Assembly (NCBI GenBank): GCA_035389585.1
Contig: DAOOSC010000001.1
Coordinates: 6,290-70,289 of the forward strand
Source of the DNA: Candidatus Magasanikiibacteriota bacterium
GTDB taxonomy: Bacteria > Patescibacteriota > Patescibacteriia > Magasanikbacterales > UBA922
Direction: 5' to 3'
Length of the DNA: 64,000 nt
Shown: piece after piece, positions 5,050-49,019 of the stretch
How positions within the stretch are numbered: the stretch's first letter is position 1
Layout of the letters: every line of letters begins with the position of its first letter
The notes under the pieces: model-generated
Told to the model about the DNA's origin: nothing
The model's database searches: none
The model's input: the letters and a program-made list of their open reading frames with translations, nothing else
Translations under genes and position numbers: made by a program

Positions 5050-6236
5050 AAATCGCCATAATAAACAACATTTATCCGCCTGAACAGCGTGGTGGAGCGG
5101 AAGTGGTGGTGAAGGGGATTGTCGATATGCTTTCGGATGCGGGGCATTCGGTCGTTGTGATTGCGGGGACATCGGGTGAAGAGAGGATTCAAGATGAAGG
5201 ACGGGTGCGGATTTATCGTCTCCGTCCGCGCAATATATATTTCTACACGGATGCGAAAAATCACAACGCTCTCGTGCGGTTGGTTTGGAATTTCTATGGT
5301 ATGTTCAATTATCCGCTCGCGCGTCGGGTGCGTCGGATTCTCGAAAAAGAAAAACCAGATGTAGTACATACCCACAATTTGATTGGTTTGAGCTTCCTCA
5401 TTCCGGCACAAATTCGCGCTCTCGGTCTCGCCCATGTGCATACGGTTCATGATGTCCAGCTCGTCGAGCCGAGCGCAATTATTATCAAAAGTTTCGAAAA
5501 TACTTGGCGCTATCGTGGCCTCCCGACACGAATTTATTCGGCGATTTTGCGCTATCTTATGGGTTCGCCAAATGTAGTAATTTCACCATCCAAATTTTTG
5601 CGTTCGTTCTATTCCGCGCGTGGATTTTTTCGAAAATCACAATTTGAAATGTTGCGCAACCCGATTACCTTGAAAGCAATGTGGCGTGGACGAAAACCAG
5701 ATACAAATGTTTTCCGTTTCCTTTATCTCGGACAAGTAGAAGAACACAAAGGTATTATGACCTTGATCGAAGCTTTTCGAATTTTGTCAGGTGAGGTGTC
5801 TTCGGGAGTTGAATTGATCGTGGTCGGAGCGGGTTCACTCGAAGAGCGGGCGCGTCAAATGGCGAATAGTTTGAATATCAAATTTCTCGGATACAAAAAA
5901 CGTGATGAGCTCGCGGATATTTTCTCGACTGTGGATGTGACAGTCGTGCCGTCTTTGTGTTATGAAAATTCTCCGACTGTAATTTTCGAAAGTCGTTTGT
6001 CGGGCGTACCGATTATTGCGAGCGATATTGAAGGCGTGGCAGAATTGATTGAAAATGATGATAGTGGCTGGTTGTTCAAAGCAGGCGATGCAGTAGATTT
6101 GGCCGTCAAAATGCGCACGGTTTTTTCTTTGCGTGAAACATTGCATCGAAAACGCATCGTGCCTCCAGCGCCGAGTTCAAATAACGACTTTCATATCAAT
6201 TTGCTTTCTTTTTATCGTTCGGCGGGCAATAAGTGA
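5046..6236 (+). CDS. Glycosyltransferase family 4 (GT-B, RfaB-like)
   Basis: The 'MKIAIINNIYPPEQRGGAEVVV' N-terminus and an E-x7-E region near the C-terminus ('FESRLSGVPIIASDIEG') match GT4. The ATG overlaps the upstream stop (ATGA). Confidence 0.8.
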   Translation: MKIAIINNIYPPEQRGGAEVVVKGIVDMLSDAGHSVVVIAGTSGEERIQDEGRVRIYRLRPRNIYFYTDAKNHNALVRLVWNFYGMFNYPLARRVRRILEKEKPDVVHTHNLIGLSFLIPAQIRALGLAHVHTVHDVQLVEPSAIIIKSFENTWRYRGLPTRIYSAILRYLMGSPNVVISPSKFLRSFYSARGFFRKSQFEMLRNPITLKAMWRGRKPDTNVFRFLYLGQVEEHKGIMTLIEAFRILSGEVSSGVELIVVGAGSLEERARQMANSLNIKFLGYKKRDELADIFSTVDVTVVPSLCYENSPTVIFESRLSGVPIIASDIEGVAELIENDDSGWLFKAGDAVDLAVKMRTVFSLRETLHRKRIVPPAPSSNNDFHINLLSFYRSAGNK

Positions 6237-8130
6237 AGATTTTTATTTCATCATCACCAATGACCACCATATTTGGAGTGGTTTTTTCGACAGCGGTTGA
6301 GATCTTTTCGAAATCCGCCCATTTACGTGATAACGCATAGTAGATTTTCTCAGCACCGGTTTTGGTGTATAAATCATCAATGATTTTCTTGTCGTGCTCG
6401 CCGTAAGTGAATTTCAAATAGGCGTCATAAAGGGGGCTACCAGAAGGCGTGGAATAGTTGAAAACTGGTCGGCCGTCCAGGTCGAAGTATTTTGTGAAGC
6501 CGTATTTCTCGATAGAGGCGGCGGCAGTGATGATGTTGGTGAGCACAATGTAATTATTATTTGGGTTGTCGTCGTGGATGTATTGGGCTGTTTCATAATC
6601 CGCTTTGGTGACATTTTGTCCTGGGAAATAAACCTTTTTGTTGGATTGTGGATATGTGAGATACCAAGAGCAGAAAATAGCGAGAGTGAGGAATATGATT
6701 AATACACGGTCGAATTTTTTTGTAAAAGCGAGAATTTCGGTAAATGTGGCAATAGCAGGTGGAATCAGGAAGAGTGTTGCGATTTGGAGGATACGAATGG
6801 CATAGGAAATTTCTTCGGTGGTAGATAAATCGCGAATAGAGAGAGAGGCGGCGAGTAGGTAGGCGTTGAATGTGAGGATGGTGGCGCAAGCGAGGTAAAT
6901 TCGGGCGGAGCGATTTTTGATTGCTTGCCAGGTGGCGAGGGCAACTAGAATGATATAGACAAGTTTGCGGTATAAATAAATTATGTCGAGATAGAAAGGT
7001 ATAGGATTGTTTCGGAAATAATAAGGGTCAGTAAAAACTTTCAGGAAATTTTTGGCGTTTGTGAAAAAAGGTCTCCATTCAAAAGAGATTCCAGAATTGG
7101 CGATTTTTGACCAGACCAGCATGAATGTCGGAATAGCTATCAATGCGATGAGTACAAAAAGTATTTGAAGAGGTGTTGAGGTTTTCTGGTCGGATCGTCT
7201 CATGAGGAGATATGTGCCGAATAATAAAGCGAATATACCAGGTAATGGGTGGGCGAGCGCAGACAAAACCATGAATGGTAAGACGGTGGCGCGTGGTAGT
7301 TTGTTCGTGAGTATGGCAGGCGAAATCAGAATGAGGGAAAGCAGGAATACATTGGCTAGGTTGTTCGGTGTGGTGAAAATAAAAGTTGCGAGCGGAAGGG
7401 CGAGAATGGCAAAAATGGGAGCAAAAGATTTATATTTCACAAATACTTCGGATTTGTGAAAACCAATAAAGGCCGTGATAGGGATAATAATGGCTGTGAA
7501 AACAGGTGTGAGCCAGATGTCAAAAAATTTCAGAGCAAAGGGTAGGATTTTCGCGAGGCTGACGACAATCGTGTATTGCCCAATATAAAAAGGTGTTTTT
7601 GGGAGAATGAAACCGTTTTCGAGAATGTGTTTCTCAGCGGCGCGGTGGAGGAATGGATCGTAGCCGAAACCGAGACGGTAGATAAAAGAAACGACGGAGT
7701 AAGTAATGAAAAAAGCGAGAATGGCGAAATATGGGCGCGACTCTCCGCGACGATAGATGAGCAAAACGCAAAAAATAAATAGGGAATATAGGGCGTAAGT
7801 GTAGTTCGGTAGGATGAGCCAAGGCGAAGTGAGAATTCCTGTGGTCGTGTGAGTTAGAAAAGTGATGAGTATAGAAATGGAGAGGAGTACGGCCGCGATT
7901 TTGACGGGTAGTTGTTTGGGTGGGTGATTCTCAGTAGGGGTGGTTGTTTCGGGGGAGAACTTTTTCTGAATAAAAAATGTGAACAACGTGGATAGTGTGG
8001 CACTGGCCAACATCGTCCAGGCATTGAGGGAATATAAAAAGTAAGCTGTACAGGCGAAAATAGAGTACAGCGCGAGCCATAATATAGAGATGAAGAATTT
8101 TTTGTGTGGTAGGTGGGTGGTCATAGCCAT
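6196..8130 (-). CDS. Large polytopic membrane protein with at least 12 predicted TM helices and a C-terminal soluble domain; possibly a GT-C-fold or YfhO-like glycosyltransferase
   Basis: An N-terminal hydrophobic region of about 450 aa, a 'GFGYDPFLH' loop motif, and a C-terminal region of about 150 aa that looks extracytoplasmic. It lies next to glycosyltransferases, but I did not recognise a specific family. Confidence 0.5.
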   Translation of the reverse strand: MAMTTHLPHKKFFISILWLALYSIFACTAYFLYSLNAWTMLASATLSTLFTFFIQKKFSPETTTPTENHPPKQLPVKIAAVLLSISILITFLTHTTTGILTSPWLILPNYTYALYSLFIFCVLLIYRRGESRPYFAILAFFITYSVVSFIYRLGFGYDPFLHRAAEKHILENGFILPKTPFYIGQYTIVVSLAKILPFALKFFDIWLTPVFTAIIIPITAFIGFHKSEVFVKYKSFAPIFAILALPLATFIFTTPNNLANVFLLSLILISPAILTNKLPRATVLPFMVLSALAHPLPGIFALLFGTYLLMRRSDQKTSTPLQILFVLIALIAIPTFMLVWSKIANSGISFEWRPFFTNAKNFLKVFTDPYYFRNNPIPFYLDIIYLYRKLVYIILVALATWQAIKNRSARIYLACATILTFNAYLLAASLSIRDLSTTEEISYAIRILQIATLFLIPPAIATFTEILAFTKKFDRVLIIFLTLAIFCSWYLTYPQSNKKVYFPGQNVTKADYETAQYIHDDNPNNNYIVLTNIITAAASIEKYGFTKYFDLDGRPVFNYSTPSGSPLYDAYLKFTYGEHDKKIIDDLYTKTGAEKIYYALSRKWADFEKISTAVEKTTPNMVVIGDDEIKIFTYCPPNDKKKAN

Positions 8131-8280
8131 TGCGATACTCGGGAACGGGTGGTATAATTAGGGTATATTTATTGGCTCAATTATAGTCAATTTTGCGAAA
8201 ATATGCAAAACAGATATTTTTTTGTATAAAAATTATCCAGATTTGCTTGTTCATTGTTTGGTGAGTTAAATGTCATCTGT

Positions 8281-10551
8281 ATGGCTGTAATCATGGGTTT
8301 TTTAGCACAATTCACTTGGTTTTATCGGGTGATTTCCGCTGAATTGGGCGGATTGATTTTACTTACGGTTCGATTATTGATGAATGGACCGGATTGGATC
8401 GGAGTGATTGGTTTCGGGATATTTGTTTTCGCAAATGCTTGTGTCTGGCGTCGAGTGGTGAGCGGTATTTGGCGGGAGAGATTGACAGAGCGGTTTTCGC
8501 TTGTCTATGGGATTATTTTGGAATTATTTGTTTTGAGTTCATTTTATGCGGTGTTTATTTTGAATGGACATTTATATCGCGGGGCGATTTTTGGCGGGTT
8601 TGTTTTCGCGGGAGCGATCGCTCATTTTTTCTATGAGAGATTGCGGGGGACATATTTACGTGGTCGTGGCAATGGTTGGGGTGATGAGAAATTTTCGCAC
8701 GATGCGGAAACCCCCTGGAGTCTATTTGGGAGAAATTCAATTTGGTTGGTCTTGTTTGTGTTATTGTGGGGGGTGGGTTTGTATTTTTTGACGCGCACGG
8801 TCGGGACGGATTCATATCAGACTCCTTGGCAATTAATTAGCCGGTATTATCTGCCGATTTTTTTTGGATTGACTCTTGTGGTCGGGATTATTTTGGTTTC
8901 CAAATTTCCGACTTCGATTGTAATATTTTATCTCATCGCACAGTCATTGCTCATGCATTGGTATCTGCCAGCGACACATGTATTACCTTGGGGTGGGGAT
9001 GTTTGGCGCCATGTCGCGGCTGAGAATCGATATTTACGCGGTGACTATGTTTTGCCGGTCTTGTTCGGGCCGGATGCTAAATGGGGAGAATCGGTAGGAA
9101 TCGATTTGCCAGAAACGATTTTGATTCCGCACAAATTCGCCTATGCTCAGTTTTGGGGGGTGGGAGTAGCTTTTTCAGATACTCTCGGGATTAGCCCGAT
9201 TGTTTTCAATAAATATTTCATGCCGATTTTGTGGCCGTTTGTTTTCACGCTTTTATTATACCGATTGGGGTTGGTCATATTTGGTCGTAGGCGGGCGGCA
9301 CTCCTGCTCGCGGCCGGAGGGGTGACACTTTTTTCTTTTCAGGCCAATGGGGGTTTCACTTTACCAAATCCATTCGCATTTTTGTTCTATCTCACAGCAT
9401 TGATTACACATTTTGCGTATTTGCGCGATCGTGAGGTGCAGACACGTCGAGCGATTTGGTTGTTTTCGCTCAGTATGATTTTGGTGTATCCGCTCTATGC
9501 GCTCATATACTGGATGGGTTTATTGGTAGCATTTGTTTTGCAGAAAATTTCGATAATAAGGAATGTTTGGAAATATGGTTTGGTGGTGGCAGGGGTGATG
9601 ACTTTTGGGGTTTGTCTGGTGCCTATGATTGATTTATTTTCCGGACTTTCGCGTTTTCCGTCGTGGATTGAACTCGGGAATGGGATGAAACAGGCAGGGG
9701 CGATTTTTTCCGGATGGTTGATGAGTCGTGGTATTATGAACTATGACATCGAAGGTGGAAATATCTTATTCAATCAGCCACCGCTTTATGCGTACGTAGC
9801 AAATTATTTTTCTGTTTTGCGAATCGTTTTGCCGGCAGTGCTGGTTTTATTTTGGAGTACTGCCGTGATTGGTTTTTGGCGGGCATGGCGGAGTCGCGAT
9901 CTCGTCGCGCGGATGATTTGCTGGCTCGTGGTGACAGCGGTTGGTGGTTATTTGACGGGCTTCTTTGTCCTTCAGGGGGATAGATTATTTGCACGACGAT
10001 TGGATTTATTGTTTGCATTTACGACAGCAGTCTTGTTTCTTTTTGGGGCGTATTATTTGTTTAATTTGCTGTGGCGCAAATTTTTGCATAAGTTTCCCAG
10101 GTTTGTAATTTCGATTGGTGTGATTATTGTGATTGTGGGATGGGCACTCTGCACTGTATTCACATATGGTATGGGACCGGATATGAGAGTGGCGGCGACG
10201 GCGGATGTAGAATTTGCGAATCAAATCGTTGCTGATCGAAAAATCAGTGAAAGGGATTGTGTTCTCGCTGATACCTGGCCACTGCTCGTGCTCGAGGGCG
10301 TATCGGGGCGCGATATTGTTGGCGGCGGTTTTCCGATGGAATATAATTATGGACAAAAAGAGCGGGTGGCATTGTATTTTGAAATTACCACCAATCCGAC
10401 CACGACCACGATATTGATGGCACAGAAATTGACTGGAGCAGAGAATTGCCGAATGTATTTGCCGCGCAACTCGCAAAGTTTTTCTAGTAGTACTATTGAT
10501 AGTTTATTGGGAAAGAAGTCACTTGTTATTGGGGATAATTTGCTTTATTAG
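8281..10551 (+). CDS. Large polytopic membrane protein of about 757 aa and more than 14 TM helices, possibly a GT-C-like glycosyltransferase. It is divergent from the 6196..8130 gene.
   Basis: The long ORF is highly hydrophobic with a C-terminal soluble tail of about 100 aa. The ORF-track start at 8254 is TTG, and the first in-frame ATG is 8281. Confidence 0.5.
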   Translation: MAVIMGFLAQFTWFYRVISAELGGLILLTVRLLMNGPDWIGVIGFGIFVFANACVWRRVVSGIWRERLTERFSLVYGIILELFVLSSFYAVFILNGHLYRGAIFGGFVFAGAIAHFFYERLRGTYLRGRGNGWGDEKFSHDAETPWSLFGRNSIWLVLFVLLWGVGLYFLTRTVGTDSYQTPWQLISRYYLPIFFGLTLVVGIILVSKFPTSIVIFYLIAQSLLMHWYLPATHVLPWGGDVWRHVAAENRYLRGDYVLPVLFGPDAKWGESVGIDLPETILIPHKFAYAQFWGVGVAFSDTLGISPIVFNKYFMPILWPFVFTLLLYRLGLVIFGRRRAALLLAAGGVTLFSFQANGGFTLPNPFAFLFYLTALITHFAYLRDREVQTRRAIWLFSLSMILVYPLYALIYWMGLLVAFVLQKISIIRNVWKYGLVVAGVMTFGVCLVPMIDLFSGLSRFPSWIELGNGMKQAGAIFSGWLMSRGIMNYDIEGGNILFNQPPLYAYVANYFSVLRIVLPAVLVLFWSTAVIGFWRAWRSRDLVARMICWLVVTAVGGYLTGFFVLQGDRLFARRLDLLFAFTTAVLFLFGAYYLFNLLWRKFLHKFPRFVISIGVIIVIVGWALCTVFTYGMGPDMRVAATADVEFANQIVADRKISERDCVLADTWPLLVLEGVSGRDIVGGGFPMEYNYGQKERVALYFEITTNPTTTTILMAQKLTGAENCRMYLPRNSQSFSSSTIDSLLGKKSLVIGDNLLY

Positions 10552-11690: not shown

Positions 11691-11770
11691 AGTCTGTCGA
11701 GGGGAAAGCGTTTTTTACGTAAGTACCCTCCAATTTAATCGTTTAATTATTTGTTTATTTAATTTGCTAT

Positions 11771-12496
11771 ATGGAAAAAACACATATTGAGGCTAGGAAT
11801 AAAATAGTGGTGGATGCTTTGAGGCAGAATCGCGCAATGATTGGCCCGGTTTTGAAGTTTGATTTTTCGCGTGAAAAATTTCAAGTTTTTGATTTGACGC
11901 GAAGCAATGGAGAATTGTTGGCGATTGATCTAAATAATGAAAAGCAGTTTATAAATTATATTTTCGAAACAATGGCGCGAAACCAGTGTCGTGTCGGAGT
12001 GGGTCGCTATGATGAAGATCGTGTGATCTATGAACGGAGCGGTCTATTTGCCAATCCGAAAGAAGCTCGGTCACTGCACCTCGGGATTGATTTGTGGGTT
12101 TCGGCTGGTGAGCCGGTCTTCGCACCGCTTCCTGGTACGGTGCATAGTTTTCAAGATAATACCCATTTTGGCGATTACGGGCCGACAATTATTTTGGCAC
12201 ATAATATATTTGGGGTGCGGTTTTTTACTCTCTATGGTCATCTGAGTCGGGAATCGTTGAATGGTTTGTTCGTAGGGAAAGAAATTGCGAAAGGTGAACG
12301 AATAGCGACAGTAGGCGAGTATGCGGTCAATGGTAATTGGCCGTCGCATCTGCACTTCGAGATTATTACTGATATGTTGGGCAAGCGAGGTGATTTCCCG
12401 GGGGTAGCGAAAATTCAGGAGCGGGATTTGTATTTATCTCTCTGTCCGGATCCGAATCTGATTTTAGGTATTCCGGGTTTGGATCATGGTGTATAG
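11771..12496 (+). CDS. Peptidase M23 (LytM-type) family protein
   Basis: 'HLGIDL' (HxxxD) and 'SHLHFE' (HxH) are the M23 zinc-site motifs. Confidence 0.8.
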   Translation: MEKTHIEARNKIVVDALRQNRAMIGPVLKFDFSREKFQVFDLTRSNGELLAIDLNNEKQFINYIFETMARNQCRVGVGRYDEDRVIYERSGLFANPKEARSLHLGIDLWVSAGEPVFAPLPGTVHSFQDNTHFGDYGPTIILAHNIFGVRFFTLYGHLSRESLNGLFVGKEIAKGERIATVGEYAVNGNWPSHLHFEIITDMLGKRGDFPGVAKIQERDLYLSLCPDPNLILGIPGLDHGV

Positions 12497-26633: not shown

Positions 26634-27944
26634 ATGGCAAAATTCATCATTGAGGGTGGAAGAAAATTAAAAGGTGTTTTACCGGTAAGTTCAGCGAAAA
26701 ACTCGGCAGTTTCTCTACTTTGCGCGGCGCTCATGGTGAAGGGTGAAGTGACCTTGCGAGATGTGCCACGAATCGAAGAAGTGGACAGAATCCTCGAAAT
26801 TTTGGAAAGTCTTGGTGTGGGGATTGCATGGCGTGGCGAGCATACTCTTGTTTTGGATACGAGAGGTGATTTGGAAATGGTGCGGATCAATAAGCATGCT
26901 TGTGAGGTGACACGTTCGTCGATGCTCCTGCTCGGGGCTCTCGCGAAACGTGAGAAGAAATATAGACTATATAAATCCGGCGGTTGTAAATTGGGAGAAA
27001 GAACAGTTCGGCCACATTTGTATGCGCTTGAGAAATTGGGTGTGACGGCACGTTCGCGCGATAAATATTACGAGGTCGTGACAAATAATTTACAGGGCAC
27101 GGAAATTATCATGTATGAATCCGGCGACACACCAACAGAAAATGCGATTATGGCGGCGGTGCTGGCCGAAGGCGAGACGGTGATCAAATTTGCTTCCGCC
27201 AATTATATGGTTCAGGATCTGTGTTTTTTCTTGAATCGGGCAGGCGCGAAAATTGAAGGAATAGGTTCGACTACTTTGCGGATTCGTGGGGTGGCTCAGT
27301 TGAAAAACAAGATTGAATATGCCGTCATGCCGGATCCGATCGTGGCAATGGCATATATTTCGATTGCGATCACGACCGCTTCACCACTCACGATTGCGGG
27401 TTGTCCGATGGAATTTTTGGAATTGGAATTGGAAAAATTGCGGGTAATGGGGCAGAAATTTTCTTTGAAAAATGAAAGACAGAGTAATTCGGGAAAATTT
27501 CGTTTGGCAGATGTCGTGATCGAACCGTCACCACTCTCGGCCTTACCAGACAAAATCTATGGACGTCCTTTTCCAGGATTGAATATTGATAATTTACCGT
27601 TTTTTGTACCGATTTTCACACGGGCGCGCGGGCGTAGTCTGGTGCATGATTGGGTATATGAAAATCGGGCGATCTATTATCTCGAATTACAGAAATTGGG
27701 TGCGAAAATTACTTTACTTGATCCACATCGTGTGTTTGTGGAAGGTCCGACCAAGTTTCGCGCCAATGAGCTCATCTGTCCACCAGCGATTCGTCCAGCG
27801 ATGATTGTGCTCATCGCGATGCTCGCGGCACCGGGGCGTTCGGTCCTCCGCAATCCTTATCCGATTGAACGTGGCTATGAGAAGGTGACTGAAGTTTTGA
27901 GTGCGGTCGGTGCGAAGATTGAGAAAGTGGCGGATATAAATTAA
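26634..27944 (+). CDS. murA: UDP-N-acetylglucosamine 1-carboxyvinyltransferase
   Basis: Canonical MurA N-terminus 'KFIIEGGRKLKGVLPVSSAKNSAVSLLCAAL' and a length of about 436 aa. Confidence 0.9.
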   Translation: MAKFIIEGGRKLKGVLPVSSAKNSAVSLLCAALMVKGEVTLRDVPRIEEVDRILEILESLGVGIAWRGEHTLVLDTRGDLEMVRINKHACEVTRSSMLLLGALAKREKKYRLYKSGGCKLGERTVRPHLYALEKLGVTARSRDKYYEVVTNNLQGTEIIMYESGDTPTENAIMAAVLAEGETVIKFASANYMVQDLCFFLNRAGAKIEGIGSTTLRIRGVAQLKNKIEYAVMPDPIVAMAYISIAITTASPLTIAGCPMEFLELELEKLRVMGQKFSLKNERQSNSGKFRLADVVIEPSPLSALPDKIYGRPFPGLNIDNLPFFVPIFTRARGRSLVHDWVYENRAIYYLELQKLGAKITLLDPHRVFVEGPTKFRANELICPPAIRPAMIVLIAMLAAPGRSVLRNPYPIERGYEKVTEVLSAVGAKIEKVADIN

Positions 27945-43365: not shown

Positions 43366-44610
43366 ATGTTGGACATCAAATATATTCGCGAAAACGTGGC
43401 TGAAGTGAAAAAAAATTGTAGCGCGCGTCGTTTGCAGGTAAATGTGGATCGTTTGCTCGAATTGGACACCGTGCGTCGAGAGAAGATTCAAAAAATTGAT
43501 GAATTGCGCGCGGGGCGCAATCGGGGTTCGAAAGGTAAGCCGACGGATGAAGAAATTGCGGCAATGCGTCAGGTGGGGGATGAAATCAGGCGGCTCGAGG
43601 ATGAATTAGAATTGGTAGAGACTGAATACACAAATATTCTATTACTAATTCCGAATCGTACTCACCCCGAATCTCCGGTTGGTGGCGAAGAAGATTTTCG
43701 AGTGGTTGAGACGCATTTAGATCCGCCGAAATTTGATTTCGAAGCGAAAGATCATGAGACACTTCTGACGAATTTGGGTTTGCTGGATTTCGAGCGCGGA
43801 GCAAAAGTTTCTGGCGCCAAATTTTATTTTGTGAAAGACGATTTGGTGCGTTTGAATATAGCTCTCATCAATTATGGTTTGGATATAATTACCAAGTACG
43901 GTTTCAAAATTTTGGAAACACCCGATCTCGCGAAAAATGAGGTTCTTCTCGGTGCTGGTTTCAATCCGCGTGGTGAAGAAGCAAATATTTATGAGGTAGA
44001 AAAACATAACATGTCTCTCGTTGGGACGGCAGAAATTACCACTCTCGGTTTTCATGCCAATGAGATTTTGGACTTGAGTGATGGACCGATCAAATATGCC
44101 TCACTTTCGCATTGTTTTCGCACCGAAGCTGGCGCTTATGGACGGACAAGCAAAGGGTTGTATCGAGTGCATCAATTTTCCAAATTAGAAATGTTTGTGT
44201 TTTGTAAACCGGAGGAAAGCGAGAAATTACATGCGGAAATTTTGGAAATTGAAAAAGAAATTTTGAATGGTCTCGAAGTGCCTTATCGGATTATCGATAT
44301 TGCGAGTGCGGATCTCGGAGCGCCAGCTTATCGTAAATATGACGGCGAAGCGTGGATGACGATGAAAAATGATTATGGCGAAGTGACTAGTACAAGTAAT
44401 TGCTTGGACTTTCAAGCGCGTCGCCTCAATATCAAATATCGAAATGAAAACAATCAAACGGATTTCGTGCACACCTTGAACGGTACAGGCATTGTCACTA
44501 GTCGTTTTCCGATTATTTTGGCAGAGAATTTCCAACAGGCTGATGGTACGATTGCAATTCCTAAAGTTTTGCAGAAGTATATGGGGAAGAAGTTTATTGG
44601 TCGTGATTAA
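43366..44610 (+). CDS. serS: Serine--tRNA ligase
   Basis: An N-terminal coiled-coil arm and class II core motifs ('FRTEAG', 'GTG'). Confidence 0.9.
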   Translation: MLDIKYIRENVAEVKKNCSARRLQVNVDRLLELDTVRREKIQKIDELRAGRNRGSKGKPTDEEIAAMRQVGDEIRRLEDELELVETEYTNILLLIPNRTHPESPVGGEEDFRVVETHLDPPKFDFEAKDHETLLTNLGLLDFERGAKVSGAKFYFVKDDLVRLNIALINYGLDIITKYGFKILETPDLAKNEVLLGAGFNPRGEEANIYEVEKHNMSLVGTAEITTLGFHANEILDLSDGPIKYASLSHCFRTEAGAYGRTSKGLYRVHQFSKLEMFVFCKPEESEKLHAEILEIEKEILNGLEVPYRIIDIASADLGAPAYRKYDGEAWMTMKNDYGEVTSTSNCLDFQARRLNIKYRNENNQTDFVHTLNGTGIVTSRFPIILAENFQQADGTIAIPKVLQKYMGKKFIGRD

Positions 44611-46214: not shown

Positions 46215-47270
46215 ATGAAATTCAATCGAATTGGTAGAAAAATTAACAACACTGCTCAGTCTATTGTTCGGTCTATGAATCAGGACGGTGGCGTGGTGAA
46301 ACGTGATTATGCTGAACGGGTGAGAAAAAATAATCCAATGTTTGTTTCTCGCCCCCAAAAAAATCTCGGTCTGTATGTCAAACTATTTTTGGCCGTTGGT
46401 TTATTTTTGGCGACGGTTATAATTATGTTGGCGCATCCGTTCTTTCGGATCAAGCAGATCGTCGTATCAGGCACGAATCGGGTGGACAATGCCGAAGTTG
46501 TGAAGACCCTCGAAGGGATATTAGATGGACGTTGTCTGGTTATTTTTTCCAATCGGAATTATTTTTTGACGGACGTGGTCGAGATCAGAGAAATTTTACG
46601 CTCACGTTTTCCGATTGCGGAAATTGTCGTCAAAAAAACTTTTCCAGGTAAGGTGGATGTGGAATTGAAGGAAAAAATTACGCGGATTATTTTTGATAAC
46701 GGGAAAAGATATGCGTTTCTGAATGAATCGGGGCAGGTACTCGAGGTGATCCGGAGTGTGGGGGAGGACGAGTGGAAGGAAGTTCCTGGTGGAGTCGATG
46801 GGCCAGCGGTCTCGTCCACTGTGAGTGCTATTATCTCTACCAGTTCGATACTCCTAAATGAGCATTTTTCGAAATATCACGTGCCAAGTGTTGGTGATAT
46901 CAGAAAACTAGCTGGGGACTATCCAATATTGTACGACGCCAGAACCAATACTGTAAATTTCGTTTCGTCGTCCCCAACGTTGGAGAAGGGGGAAACAGTC
47001 GTGGAGGATTACTTGGTGAAAAGAGTCATCGAGTGGTATGGTGGATTGATAAAAGTAATCGGAGAAAATAAAATTGATTATTTTGTAATTCAAAATGATG
47101 TGGGTTTTGGTGAAGTGCGATTACGAGATGGAAGTTATATCAAATTAAATTTAATTGTGGATCGTCCGAGCGCAATTGAGGCGATTGATTTACTTTTGCA
47201 TGAAAAAATTAAAGGAGGGAAGTTCGAGTATCTAGATGTACGTTATCCAGGACGAGTATATTGGAAATGA
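46215..47270 (+). CDS. ftsQ: FtsQ/DivIB-like cell division protein (POTRA domain)
   Basis: A single TM segment, then a POTRA-like 'IKQIVVSGTNRV...' block. It lies downstream of murF. Confidence 0.65.
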   Translation: MKFNRIGRKINNTAQSIVRSMNQDGGVVKRDYAERVRKNNPMFVSRPQKNLGLYVKLFLAVGLFLATVIIMLAHPFFRIKQIVVSGTNRVDNAEVVKTLEGILDGRCLVIFSNRNYFLTDVVEIREILRSRFPIAEIVVKKTFPGKVDVELKEKITRIIFDNGKRYAFLNESGQVLEVIRSVGEDEWKEVPGGVDGPAVSSTVSAIISTSSILLNEHFSKYHVPSVGDIRKLAGDYPILYDARTNTVNFVSSSPTLEKGETVVEDYLVKRVIEWYGGLIKVIGENKIDYFVIQNDVGFGEVRLRDGSYIKLNLIVDRPSAIEAIDLLLHEKIKGGKFEYLDVRYPGRVYWK

Positions 47271-47521
47271 GTTTAGAGGTAGGGAGGTGGGAGGATATCC
47301 AGTCCAGTGAAGCCTTGGCTGGATTGAGGTATATAAGAGGCGTCGTTTAATGAAACTTATGCGACGCCACAGAATATGGCTTCATAAACCCAAGGTATAG
47401 AGTGTCGTCTTTTTGTTTAAATTTTCAGGACGAAGAAAATAGGATGGTTGTTATGAGGCTTCCCTTGCTTAGGTATTTGTTTTATGAGCCACTTATTGTG
47501 CTGGTATTCACCTGTTTAATG

Positions 47522-47655
47522 TCAAAGTTCAAATTACAAATTTCAAATAAATGCCAAAACTAAAAGTTCAAATACCCGCAAAGATTGTAAATGGATATTT
47601 GATATTTTGATTTTGGCATTTGACATTGATTTGTTATTTGTAATTTGAACTTTGA
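47522..47655. repeat. Long imperfect palindrome with 20-bp perfect outer arms and 11-bp inner arms
   Basis: tcaaagttcaaattacaaat at 47522-47541 pairs with atttgtaatttgaactttga at 47636-47655. Nested inside, aaatgccaaaa at 47549-47559 pairs with ttttggcattt at 47611-47621. Confidence 0.6.
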
Positions 47656-47771
47656 GGTTAGTCAAAACGCACTCGACCTAACCTTTCTCTATTCTCCATC
47701 TCACCCACCGCTCTCTTCTCTACCTAATAAAATATTGTGCGACACCTAAATAAAAGAGGCGACTATTTATT

Positions 47772-49019
47772 TTAGTTTGGAAGGTAAGCGAGAGGATTCA
47801 CTGGGATGCCATTTTTGCGACATTCGAAGTGGAGGTGAGGGCCGGTGACGAATGGTCCAGCTCCAACTGTGCCCGGTGTTCCTCCAGAGGCGCCGATTAT
47901 ATCCCCTATCGTCACAAATTGATCTTCTTTCACATAAATACTGCTCAAATGTCCATAGACAGTTGACAATCCCCCACTATGCACGATCATGACATAACTA
48001 TAACATGAAGCGAGTGAACAGGTTTTCGCGCGGGCGATATATCCAGAACCAGCGGCTTTGACTGGGGTGCCTTGTCCAGCGCGGACATCAATGCCATTGT
48101 GCTCAAAAACGTTTCTATAGGGGTAGTCTGGGTCGTGGAAAAATGACGTGACAACACGGCTCGGTACCGGCCAATTAAATACACCACCGCTTTCCATTTC
48201 GGCATTAATTTTTTTCTGTGATTCGAGTTTTTTTCGTACTTCTTGTTCAATGGATTCAATTTCACCTTCGATTGCCTGATACTGGCTTTTTTGATTAGCG
48301 AGGAGGGTTTTGTATTTGAGTTCGGAAGATTGAGTTTGGGCGAGAAGATTTCCTTTGAGAAAACCTTGTTCTTCGAGTTTCTTTTTTTTCAATGCAAGTT
48401 CTTCGCTGGTTTTTTTGTAGGCAGTTTCTCGCTCTGTGGCAATGTTTTTCTTTTCGTCCAATTCTGATTTAGAAATTTTAATACCTCTTACATTGGTGCC
48501 GAGATTTCTTTCAATATTTTCTAGGTATTGGATACGATTGTAGAAATCAGAGAAATTGTCGTAAGTGGCGGCAATTTGAATATAATTTCGGTTTTCTTGA
48601 AGATAGATTGTTCGGATCAGTTCGGCGAGCATTTTTTGTTGTTTCGCGATGCTAGCTTCTTTGTCCTGGATTGACAGATCGAGAGCGGAAATTTCGAGCT
48701 GAATTGATGAGAGTTGAGTCTCGGTAGCTTCGATATCAAACTCGACCTGACGTGTTTGGTTGTCTAAAATTGAAATTTGATTAGAGAGTGAGACAGCTTC
48801 TTTACGTTTAGCATCGATTTTTTGTTTGAATTCTTCAATGCTTTTTTCGAGTTGTTTGATCTTGTCTCGTTTTTCGGTAATTTTCTGGTTCAAGGTGTCA
48901 ATTTCAGCAGAGTTCCCCCCTACACCGCTATTCGTTAGCGCAACTGATTTGGAGGGAAAAGAAAAGACTGATCCGAAAATGGCCAGGAAAAATATAGTAA
49001 TTAAATACCGGTATTTCAT
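47772..49019 (-). CDS. Peptidase M23 protein with an N-terminal coiled-coil (EnvC-like architecture but catalytically intact)
   Basis: A signal/TM segment, about 250 aa of heptad-rich coiled coil, and C-terminal M23 with 'HNGIDV' and 'PHLHFE'. Confidence 0.8.
   Translation of the reverse strand: MKYRYLITIFFLAIFGSVFSFPSKSVALTNSGVGGNSAEIDTLNQKITEKRDKIKQLEKSIEEFKQKIDAKRKEAVSLSNQISILDNQTRQVEFDIEATETQLSSIQLEISALDLSIQDKEASIAKQQKMLAELIRTIYLQENRNYIQIAATYDNFSDFYNRIQYLENIERNLGTNVRGIKISKSELDEKKNIATERETAYKKTSEELALKKKKLEEQGFLKGNLLAQTQSSELKYKTLLANQKSQYQAIEGEIESIEQEVRKKLESQKKINAEMESGGVFNWPVPSRVVTSFFHDPDYPYRNVFEHNGIDVRAGQGTPVKAAGSGYIARAKTCSLASCYSYVMIVHSGGLSTVYGHLSSIYVKEDQFVTIGDIIGASGGTPGTVGAGPFVTGPHLHFECRKNGIPVNPLAYLPN

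Follow-up and report, generated by a model that had tools for sequence, protein, structure and literature searches.

An intergenic gap at 47271-47771 of a 64-kb stretch of chromosome from Candidatus Magasanikbacteria (Patescibacteria, of the candidate phyla radiation, CPR; contig DAOOSC010000001.1; the whole stretch is called the window here) separates the convergent genes of an FtsQ-like cell-division protein and an M23 peptidase, and holds a 28-bp element that is almost certainly a recombination site. In relatives, this site is demonstrably the attachment site of a phage. With moderate confidence, the locus is read as a conserved tyrosine-recombinase site, probably the dif site of the clade, which lies beside a resident insert of ~380 bp with a palindrome; that the site belongs to the Xer/dif kind is, taken by itself, narrowly favoured.

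According to the model proposed here, the gap would be a site-specific recombination locus. Positions 47340-47367 would represent a host dif-type site, at which a chromosomal Xer-family recombinase would resolve chromosome dimers, and mobile elements would exploit this site, such as the complete tailed phage that is integrated exactly at its central region in relatives. The adjoining segment (47369-47746) would probably be what remains of such an integration after decay or domestication, with a lone arm of the site as its boundary on the M23 side, and its palindrome would most likely act as a bidirectional stop for transcription coming from ftsQ and M23. The data show directly that the site is conserved and unique, how the recombination junction and attP are built, that empty and occupied configurations exist, and that evidence for an RNA is absent; that Xer is the enzyme, that the host uses the site to resolve dimers, and that the palindrome terminates transcription are inferences.

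CPR/Patescibacteria comprise a large share of bacterial diversity, and to our knowledge almost nothing is known about replication completion, chromosome segregation, and prophage carriage in them. In the literature searched, no paper connects Xer or dif to Patescibacteria, and no Xer-exploiting phage has been described there. The present locus provides a candidate dif for the phylum (GYGTCGYATAA-N6-WTRWRCGACRC, between ftsQ and an EnvC-like M23 gene) and a natural case of a complete tailed phage, whose integrase is undetected, inserted at the candidate dif. If confirmed, Xer exploitation would reach beyond filamentous phages and islands. In addition, the site would mark the likely terminus, which is useful for checking assemblies of metagenome-assembled genomes, and would account for recurrent contig breaks, while a defined attachment site could serve integration tools in organisms that are now without genetics.

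The 28-bp site and its recombination junctions

The features of the gap that are needed first are as follows.

47271-47771: gap between the convergent FtsQ-like and M23 peptidase genes
46215-47270, + strand: FtsQ-like cell-division gene, left flank, converging on the gap (Pfam POTRA_1 FtsQ-type, E=4e-7)
47772-49019, - strand: M23 peptidase gene, right flank, coding for a coiled coil and a LytM domain (Pfam Peptidase_M23, E=1.8e-25)
47339-47368, no strand: very probable core recombination site, GGCGTCGTTTAA-TGAAAC-TTATGCGACGCC, whose 28-bp core is 47340-47367
47340-47350: ftsQ-proximal core arm, GCGTCGTTTAA
47351-47356: centre, TGAAAC
47357-47367: M23-proximal core arm, TTATGCGACGC

Tyrosine recombinases bind 11-6-11 sites as dimers and exchange strands inside the central region. 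Such a layout is present at 47340-47367, and the same layout was found in 9 species. A preliminary description of the window, made from its letters alone, had listed this element (ggcgtcg...cgacgcc) among several local hairpins and placed it at 47349-47379. The hairpin is real but lies at 47339-47368, ~10 nt further left, and it is the most important feature of the locus rather than one of several.

For comparison, the ftsQ-M23 locus was taken from 13 independent contigs of relatives, among which one group (L103-L106) includes NCBI GCA_001784235.1. Only three database relatives were found for the FtsQ-like protein (91%, 49%, and 48% identity), whereas the M23 protein has many orthologues at 55-93% identity, the named ones coming from Candidatus Magasanikbacteria or Patescibacteria. 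The order ftsQ - site - M23 is retained in every Candidatus Magasanikbacteria relative examined, down to an FtsQ identity of 48%, and the core site is identical in the loci whose FtsQ proteins are 91%, 49%, and 48% identical to that of the window. In an alignment of 8 species, read from M23 to ftsQ, the consensus is G-Y-GTCG-Y-ATAA / 6 nt / W-T-R-W-R-CGAC-R-C, with the site as the invariant core, and the central 6 nt are clade-specific (GTTTCA in the window clade versus GATATA in the others). Conserved arms around a clade-specific centre point to the core site of a tyrosine recombinase. Over their outer 6 nt, the two arms mirror each other perfectly (GCGTCG / CGACGC), which suggests that a single recombinase may act on both.

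The site is also unique in the window. At 0 mismatches, the two 11-nt arms occur in the 64 kb only at the core site, plus a lone arm at 47735-47745, and the full site has one copy in the window and one in each relative locus of 17-21 kb. The exact 29-mer of the hairpin motif has 0 copies in GTDB genomes and 0 in IMG/VR, and a scan of JGI metagenomes with an overlapping 20-mer returned one contig (L008), which is syntenic. Searches of GTDB with FtsQ peptide patterns gave 0 confirmed matches.

Direct evidence for recombination comes from two contigs of one relative (L009 and L010) that have the same M23 protein and identical sequence up to position 12338, and that diverge inside the site. At the junction in L009, GTGTCGTATAA-GATATA-TTGTGCGACAC is followed by ftsQ, while in L010, a 617-kb contig, GTGTCGTATAA-GATATA-ATGTAAGACAC is followed by >9 kb of unrelated genes (phage DNA). 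The DNA after the latter junction is 100% identical to an IMG/VR contig (L014), which runs on into other phage DNA. There, the phage attachment site (attP) reads GTGTCTTACAT-TATATC-TTGGCTAACCT; on the same strand, the host site is GTGTCGCACAA-TATATC-TTATACGACAC and the integrated junction is GTGTCTTACAT-TATATC-TTATACGACAC. One arm of attP matches the host site at 8/11 positions, the centre is identical, and the other arm is unrelated, so that the shared core is TATATCTT. The divergence of L009 and L010, combined with this core common to attP and the host site (attB), places the crossover inside TATATCTT, at the central region. The second phage junction is predicted to read AGGTTAGCCAA-GATATA-TTGTGCGACAC-ftsQ.

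A related prophage contig (L013) comprises the end of an ftsQ gene, then a perfect site, and then homologous phage DNA. Furthermore, breaks at the site are seen in four assemblies of window-clade relatives: the contig stops with the last base of the site in L004 and L005 and ~7 nt short of the site in L006, and L008 begins inside the central region. Such breaks may be explained because assemblers break where a population carries alternative junctions at one point.

Phage integration and the proposed assignment to dif

The phage that is integrated in the 617-kb Magasanikbacteria contig (L010) was rebuilt from four overlapping loci (L019+L018+L014+L099; IMGVR_UViG_3300025073_000021) into a genome of 37,433 bp, with attP at contig position 27628. 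A direct terminal repeat of 127 bp indicates that this genome is complete. Its genes code for a portal and an adaptor of the SU10 type, for a LysM protein and an SLT domain protein, and, among enzymes and replication proteins, for a YqaJ exonuclease, a replication initiator, and a DnaB helicase. Among its open reading frames (ORFs) of at least 184 aa, all scanned against Pfam, none has an integrase or recombinase domain, and attP is flanked by small ORFs only (one of them RHH-like), with no large gene adjoining. It is a complete tailed phage of a CPR host without a detectable integrase.

These properties resemble those of the integrative mobile elements exploiting Xer (IMEX), such as TLC-phi, VGJ-phi, CTX-phi, and the gonococcal genetic island (GGI), which have no integrase and whose attP has one host-like arm with the centre and one divergent arm. 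In the attP of TLC-phi and GGI, a good arm and a central region that matches the host are reported to stand beside a second arm that diverges (PMC5357621, PMC3025954); in the phage of the relatives, one dif-like arm and the centre are likewise joined to a degenerate arm. The main reason for regarding the host enzyme as Xer-type, and the site as dif, is this combination of a missing integrase with an attP that copies one arm and the centre beside a divergent arm. Other likenesses to IMEX are that integration leaves a hybrid and a second site, that remnants and arrays gather beside dif, and that small DNA-binding proteins are encoded near attP (cf. XafT of TLC-phi). On the other hand, the element here is a 37-kb tailed dsDNA phage (portal, adaptor, DnaB), with a presumed dependence on Xer, rather than a filamentous phage or an island, and the resident 380-bp insert has no recognisable genes.

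The dif site of Escherichia coli reads GGTGCGCATAA-TGTATA-TTATGTTAAAT (PMC3025954), and the M23-proximal arm of the present site, read outward (GCGTCGCATAA), matches its XerC arm GGTGCGCATAA at 8/11 positions. Like the XerC/XerD dif sites of E. coli, B. subtilis, and Frankia (PMC3025954), the site has 28 bp with two partly inverted 11-bp arms around a 6-bp exchange centre, and its inner arm ends are ...TAA / TTA.... It is also intergenic, occurs once in the available sequence, is hijacked by mobile elements, and lies near the composition switch of the window. The XerH/difH, XerS/difSL, and archaeal XerA/dif systems (PMC5357621, PMC2958812) share with it clade-wide conservation, and its symmetric arms would fit one recombinase. 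However, xerS adjoins difSL whereas no recombinase gene is adjacent here, the centre is 6 bp and not 11 bp as in the single-recombinase Xer systems, and the arms bear no likeness to the difH/difSL arms quoted in PMC5357621.

With regard to the position of the site relative to replication, every gene in 16-47270 has a positive GC skew at third codon positions (GC3 skew) on the + strand, whatever its own orientation, including four minus-strand genes left of the site (+0.24, +0.41, +0.56, and +0.52). G-rich hexamers are distributed accordingly between the + and - strands (+327/-29 in plus-strand genes and +56/-2 in minus-strand genes). This orientation-independent skew left of the site is a replication-strand signature. 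From 49059 onward, the GC3 skew is mostly negative (range -0.37 to +0.25); the slope of the cumulative skew breaks at ~47.5 kb, and the M23 gene keeps the left-hand composition (+0.45). In published surveys, dif sites are located near the skew shift point but not exactly on it (PMC3025954). The FtsK-orienting polar sequences (KOPS) are motifs that orient FtsK (PMC3025954). G-rich oligomers are strongly polar left of the site, about as base skew alone predicts, and a test for KOPS-like k-mers was discarded as support since polarity that matches base skew is uninformative.

Several observations weigh against the dif assignment. The skew switch lies between M23 and GltX (~49.03 kb), 1.7 kb off the site, and the right side is weak and mixed, with no mirror image of the left. 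In five relatives, the GC3 skew per gene fits an effect of gene orientation on top of a constant replichore, and no switch occurs within ~+/-10 kb. The agreement with a terminus is thus loose in the window and unconfirmed in relatives, which is the main weakness of the assignment. Moreover, the second arm matches the XerD arm of E. coli at only 4-6/11 positions, and the outer arm halves are symmetric, unlike those of XerC/XerD dif. No recombinase gene was found in the 64-kb window or in any +/-10-kb relative locus, the window also contains no FtsK gene, and the phage could encode a recombinase of an unrecognised family. Within the insert described below, the inner flank, the lone arm, and the palindrome arms have no demonstrated role.

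A further point on the same side concerns a comparison with the closest strain (L003). Identity between the window and L003 is 99.6% in the seryl-tRNA synthetase (SerRS) gene, 89.3% in the Mur ligase gene, 88.5% in ftsQ, and 86.9% in the M23 gene; across the gap, it is 79.7% at 47271-47339, 99.7% at 47340-47710 (1 mismatch in 371 nt), and 85.2% at 47711-47771. The near-identical tract begins exactly at the first base of the 28-bp core, which would be compatible with exchange through the site. Nevertheless, 47340-47710 could equally be a tract of homologous recombination against a background of ~88%: its right boundary is off the lone arm and SerRS forms a second near-identical tract, so that homologous recombination explains the pattern just as well. 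As proof of mobility the near-identity is weakened, since the 99.6% identity of SerRS reveals mosaic genomes. The SerRS gene itself (43366-44610) is sharply mosaic relative to L003 and points to recent homologous exchange between strains.

Some of these points would also suit a different, rather unlikely explanation, in which the 28-bp site is only an attachment site for mobile elements that encode an unrecognised recombinase and has no role in dimer resolution; its conservation would then result from another host use or from the elements homogenising it again and again. In favour of this, phage integration at the site is demonstrated, the relatives lack an orientation-independent skew switch at the locus, many phage ORFs are unannotated, and a small RHH-like ORF together with a possible HTH-like ORF (by eye, no Pfam match) near attP or the junction might supply directionality factors. 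Similar to lambda-type attB/attP pairs, a short common core holds the crossover and a candidate gene for a small DNA-binding protein is nearby. Unlike in those pairs, no integrase gene was found in the complete phage, and attB is intergenic, conserved itself, and outside tRNA and protein genes. The complete phage genome without an integrase domain or a large gene by attP argues against this explanation, as do the layout and the asymmetry of attP, which match Xer-exploiting elements. In addition, a functionless attB would not be expected to stay identical at 48% FtsQ identity, nor to survive alone in a gap of 123 bp, as it does in one lineage.

As a separate observation on the phages, perfect DnaA-box-like motifs (TGTGGATAA / TTATCCACA, GTGGATAAC) are present ~0.1-0.5 kb from the phage end or attP in two related phages (L010 12420-12450 and 12755-12775; L013 ~195-215 and 436-452). 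Their role could be that of an origin in the phage, or of an element that titrates DnaA or is regulatory.

The probable resident insert, its palindrome, and the G-rich tracts

Besides the core site, the gap contains the following features.

47275-47294, + strand: purine/G-rich tract, GAGGTAGGGAGGTGGGAGG, pointing to the core site and not conserved in sequence
47369-47401: conserved inner flank, ACAGAATATGGCTTCATAAACCCAAGGTATAGA, adjoining the core site and kept in L003, L012, L007, and L008
47402-47563, + strand: candidate small ORF, GTG start, 53 aa (MSSFCLNFQDE...)
47517-47660: AT-rich imperfect palindrome with perfect 20-nt arms, TCAAAGTTCAAATTACAAAT, at 47522-47541 and 47636-47655
47656-47683: local hairpin ggttag...ctaacc, present in the window and L003, not conserved in L012, L007, and L008
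47697-47725, - strand: G-rich tract, GGTAGAGAAGAGAGCGGTGGGTGAG, pointing to the core site; within the window clade, GGTGGGTGAG does not vary
47732-47746: lone arm (half-site), ATATTGTGCGACACC, with the arm proper at 47735-47745; no partner arm was recognised

In L103-L106, the gap between M23 and ftsQ measures 123 bp and holds just the site (GTGTCGTATAA-GATATA-TTGTGCGACGC), with no lone arm, AT-rich segment, or palindrome. Since the site stands alone in this lineage, the rest of the window gap (47369-47746) is likely an insertion. In the other 8 lineages, the lone arm and the site are 300-550 bp apart. In these occupied loci, going from M23 toward ftsQ, the lone arm (GYGTCGCACAATATT) is succeeded by a G-rich tract and then by 150-400 bp of variable, AT-rich DNA; a conserved block of ~35-45 nt leads up to the core site, from which a spacer of ~40-75 nt extends to the ftsQ stop (460 nt in L011). 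The block that abuts the site in the L011/L015/L017 clade (ACCT-GGG...TATTCT) is only weakly similar to the inner flank of the window.

The lone arm (47735-47745) is a direct repeat of the M23-proximal core arm (47357-47367), 378 bp away, and is found beside M23 in all occupied relative loci (L003, L007, L008, L009, L011, L012, L015, L017, and L107). Accordingly, 47369-47746 has what is expected of an IMEX remnant, namely presence or absence between lineages and direct repeats of the site, although the outer copy is a half-site only. Integration by way of the site would leave an intact site at one end and, at the opposite end, a site that is hybrid and degenerate, which matches the arrangement of lone arm and core. 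The suggestion in the preliminary description that the region is a palindromic mobile remnant or resembles a miniature inverted-repeat transposable element (MITE) is therefore upheld in part: a segment of ~380 bp with the palindrome appears to be an insertion by the recombination site, missing in one lineage, but a MITE was rejected because the palindrome arm and the site are single-copy in 64 kb and the locus is syntenic in all relatives. The dif modules and pdif sites of Acinetobacter (PMC12907356, PMC11705084) are similar in being short segments bounded by Xer sites that differ between related replicons. The window insert differs from them in having one full site and a lone arm, in being chromosomal, syntenic, and single-copy, and in carrying no cargo gene of known function.

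Two sequence resemblances were also recorded. The divergent arm and flank of attP (L014 13447-13462) form the palindromic GGCTAAGGTTAGCC, which resembles GGCTAAAGTTAGCG / AGCTAAGGTTAGCG in the resident inserts of L011 (~11737-11750) and L015 (~12233-12246), ~45 nt from the core site; this hints that resident inserts may derive from the ends of related phages. Within the ftsQ coding sequence of the window, ATATTGTACGACGCC (46926-46940) matches the lone-arm motif ATATTGTGCGACGCC at 14/15 positions. In the protein it corresponds to ILYDA within the invariant PILYDAR motif. All ftsQ genes of the window clade (L003-L007) retain it, those of the L009 clade do not, and the likeness is probably a coincidence.

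The earlier statement that no ORF of at least 60 aa lies in the gap holds true, the largest having 53 aa and 40 aa. The longer one (47402-47563) may be considered a candidate gene: four species share its start codon and an open frame behind it (53, 35, 70, and 49 aa), and its N-terminus is conserved as MSSFC(L/S)(N/T)F(Q/L)DE. Substitutions are even across codon positions, with no third-position excess. The product has no Pfam family and no homologue in an alignment search of 5.8 billion proteins, and the ORF is not present in the L009/L011 clade. The previously noted hairpin ggttag...ctaacc was also recovered, at 47656-47683, and is probably incidental.

One scenario would make the segment between the lone arm and the inverted ftsQ-proximal arm an invertible switch (inverton) that controls the small ORF. 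In L009, L011, and L017, the lone and far arms do form 14-nt perfect inverted repeats around 300-550 bp. Yet all 13 independent loci have the same orientation, the sequences by the lone arm (TATTAG, TATTTT) are unlike the central region, the lone arm has no partner, and the far arm of the window differs (TTTAA in its inner part). The scenario is hardly credible and was rejected on account of the single orientation in the 13 loci. A typing of the site itself by left and right arms, in which it seemed flipped relative to its flanks in one clade, was likewise withdrawn, as L015, L017, and the inner flank show a single orientation.

The palindrome was correctly described as 134 bp long with perfect outer arms of 20 bp, and it is enclosed in 58-nt arms (47517-47574 and 47603-47660) that are 78% complementary. 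It is not a chance palindrome, as had been considered: with at most 3 mismatches, an 18-mer of the arm has 4 matches versus 0.29 expected, and there is only one other inverted repeat of at least 24 nt in the 64 kb. When further copies of the arm were sought, as had been proposed, it was found only at this locus within the 64 kb. Both strands of the palindrome fold about alike (-57.6 and -51.7 kcal/mol, with 4 and 2 G-U pairs), and this equal folding with few G-U pairs suggests symmetry at the DNA level. The palindrome arm GTTCAAATTACAAAT is kept in the window, L003, L012, and L007, where the interior changes yet remains palindromic; the palindrome is missing in L008 and L103, and that of L009 is a different one, whose perfect arms measure 26 nt.

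Unlike a Rho-independent terminator, in which a U-tract follows a GC-rich stem, the palindrome is AT-rich and no T-run flanks it, and no terminator-like site was found in a scan of 46900-48200. In L011, L015, and L017, the equivalent interval holds canonical terminator hairpins (A-tract/stem/T-tract). Because these terminators occupy the equivalent place, termination or insulation is the most economical role for the palindrome despite its poor fit to the consensus, and it is tentatively regarded as a possible terminator or insulator. The proposal of a convergent-transcription termination zone thus remains plausible for the palindrome but not for the locus as a whole. In a broader form of this proposal, the gap would be an ordinary spacer between convergent operons, the hairpins and palindrome bidirectional terminators, and the conserved 30-mer at the core a terminator stem. 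The convergent genes, the terminators of the relatives, and the small ORF of L007, which stops just before the palindrome, would fit such a spacer. It is nevertheless very improbable, for besides the negative terminator scan, the 30-mer has no U-tract, is conserved in sequence and not just in structure, and is a recombination junction; a spacer can accommodate the palindrome but not the whole locus. Elsewhere in the window, DUF192 and recR, which are likewise convergent, have between them a palindrome with a GC core and with A- and T-runs on its flanks (1491-1530, AAAAATAATCCCGCCCTTCATGAAGGCGGGGTTATTTTTT); unlike the AT-rich palindrome of the gap, it is a textbook bidirectional terminator.

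The two ends of the gap are indeed purine-rich (5', 47275-47294) and pyrimidine-rich (3', 47700-47724), as previously reported, but the long-range closing helix that had been proposed from them is not borne out: their duplex has -36.6 kcal/mol, compared with -34.4 +/- 4.3 when the partners are shuffled, and in three relatives, too, the duplex has no advantage over shuffles. The complementarity of the ends is compositional only. They instead represent a conserved feature of the locus, G-rich tracts that converge on the site. Directly after the lone arm, a G-rich tract is found in all 8 occupied species (13-26 G versus 1-7 C in 50 nt), and the M23-side tract, read toward the site, has 12-26 G versus 1-7 C in 9/9 species. 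The ftsQ-side spacer, read toward the site, has more G than C in 8/9 species; TAGGG(G/A)AG-like motifs recur in it, and motifs such as TAGGGGAG, GGTAGGGAGG, and GGGGGAGA recur even in the minimal 123-bp gap. The motif CTCACCCACC is conserved in the window, L003, L012, and L007. By analogy with KOPS, and speculatively, the inward G-rich tracts might be FtsK-orienting signals.

A structured non-coding RNA of ~400 nt, in which GGCGUCG/CGACGCC and the purine/pyrimidine tracts would close a variable AU-rich hairpin domain, had also been suggested for the gap. It is true that the gap folds far better than shuffles (z-scores of -6.0 on the + strand and -7.9 on the - strand), that pairing of the lone arm to the ftsQ-proximal arm is conceivable (including one G-U pair on a minus-strand RNA), and that conserved blocks surround a variable middle. 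However, Rfam gave no match at the gathering threshold anywhere in the window or in the gaps of 8 relatives. In E-value mode, 47150-47900 yielded only sub-threshold plant miRNA hairpin models over the palindrome plus scattered chance-level matches, the best being MIR1435 (31 bits versus a gathering threshold of 94), and ARAGORN detected no tRNA or tmRNA. Apart from the shuffle-like duplex energy in all four species, the 5' partner opposite the invariant 3' CTCACCCACC is not conserved and shows no compensating change, the palindrome has few G-U pairs and the same symmetry on either strand, and arm position 2 (C/T) varies independently in each arm. Furthermore, L103 is without the whole segment save the 28-bp site, and the site demonstrably works as DNA. 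Such an RNA is therefore not supported and appears even less probable than the ordinary spacer.

A more elaborate version of the dif reading may also be put forward, in which a single Xer-type recombinase acts at a symmetric dif, tailed phages without an integrase hijack it, the insert is a domesticated mini-IMEX, and the inward G-rich tracts are FtsK-orienting motifs. In this full combination the proposal is improbable, marginally more so than the plain attachment site. If true, these phages would be the first tailed-phage IMEXs, lysogenising ultra-small bacteria, and the flank, small ORF, or palindrome of the insert would modulate Xer or shield dif from convergent transcription.

Neighbouring genes and other observations

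By Pfam annotation, the 64-kb window is ordinary chromosome, with genes for DnaB, RecR, MreBC, PBP2, GreA, several aminoacyl-tRNA synthetases, a Mur ligase, ClpB, PriA, Def, and Fmt. Two large ORFs at 6196-8130 (- strand) and 8254-10551 (+ strand), encoding 644 and 765 aa, have no Pfam family. No other gene in the window has as strong a GC3 skew as the former (+0.56 on the + strand), whose coding strand is markedly rich in C.

On its M23 side, the locus forms a variable hotspot. Small cargo genes that differ by lineage lie between M23 and the lone arm, such as those for an RNase_T-like exonuclease in L009 (11244-11768), an MtN3/PQ-loop protein in L011 (11238-11486), a 56-aa ORF and a Fic-domain protein in L015 (11293-11972), and a 23S_rRNA_IVP protein in L017 (3741-4109); the window has no cargo gene there. 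On the other side, between the core site and ftsQ, a small lysine-rich ORF (MPVKKTPKAKKPAVKKKVAKKVTKKVTSKKKVVKKKTTPKKKK) was detected in one relative only (L011 12083-12215), and its product resembles the tail of a histone-like or nucleoid protein. The same contig carries a thiamine pyrophosphate (TPP) riboswitch (L011 162-254; 68 bits, gathering threshold 54.3) upstream of a thiamine pyrophosphokinase gene, which is unrelated to the site.

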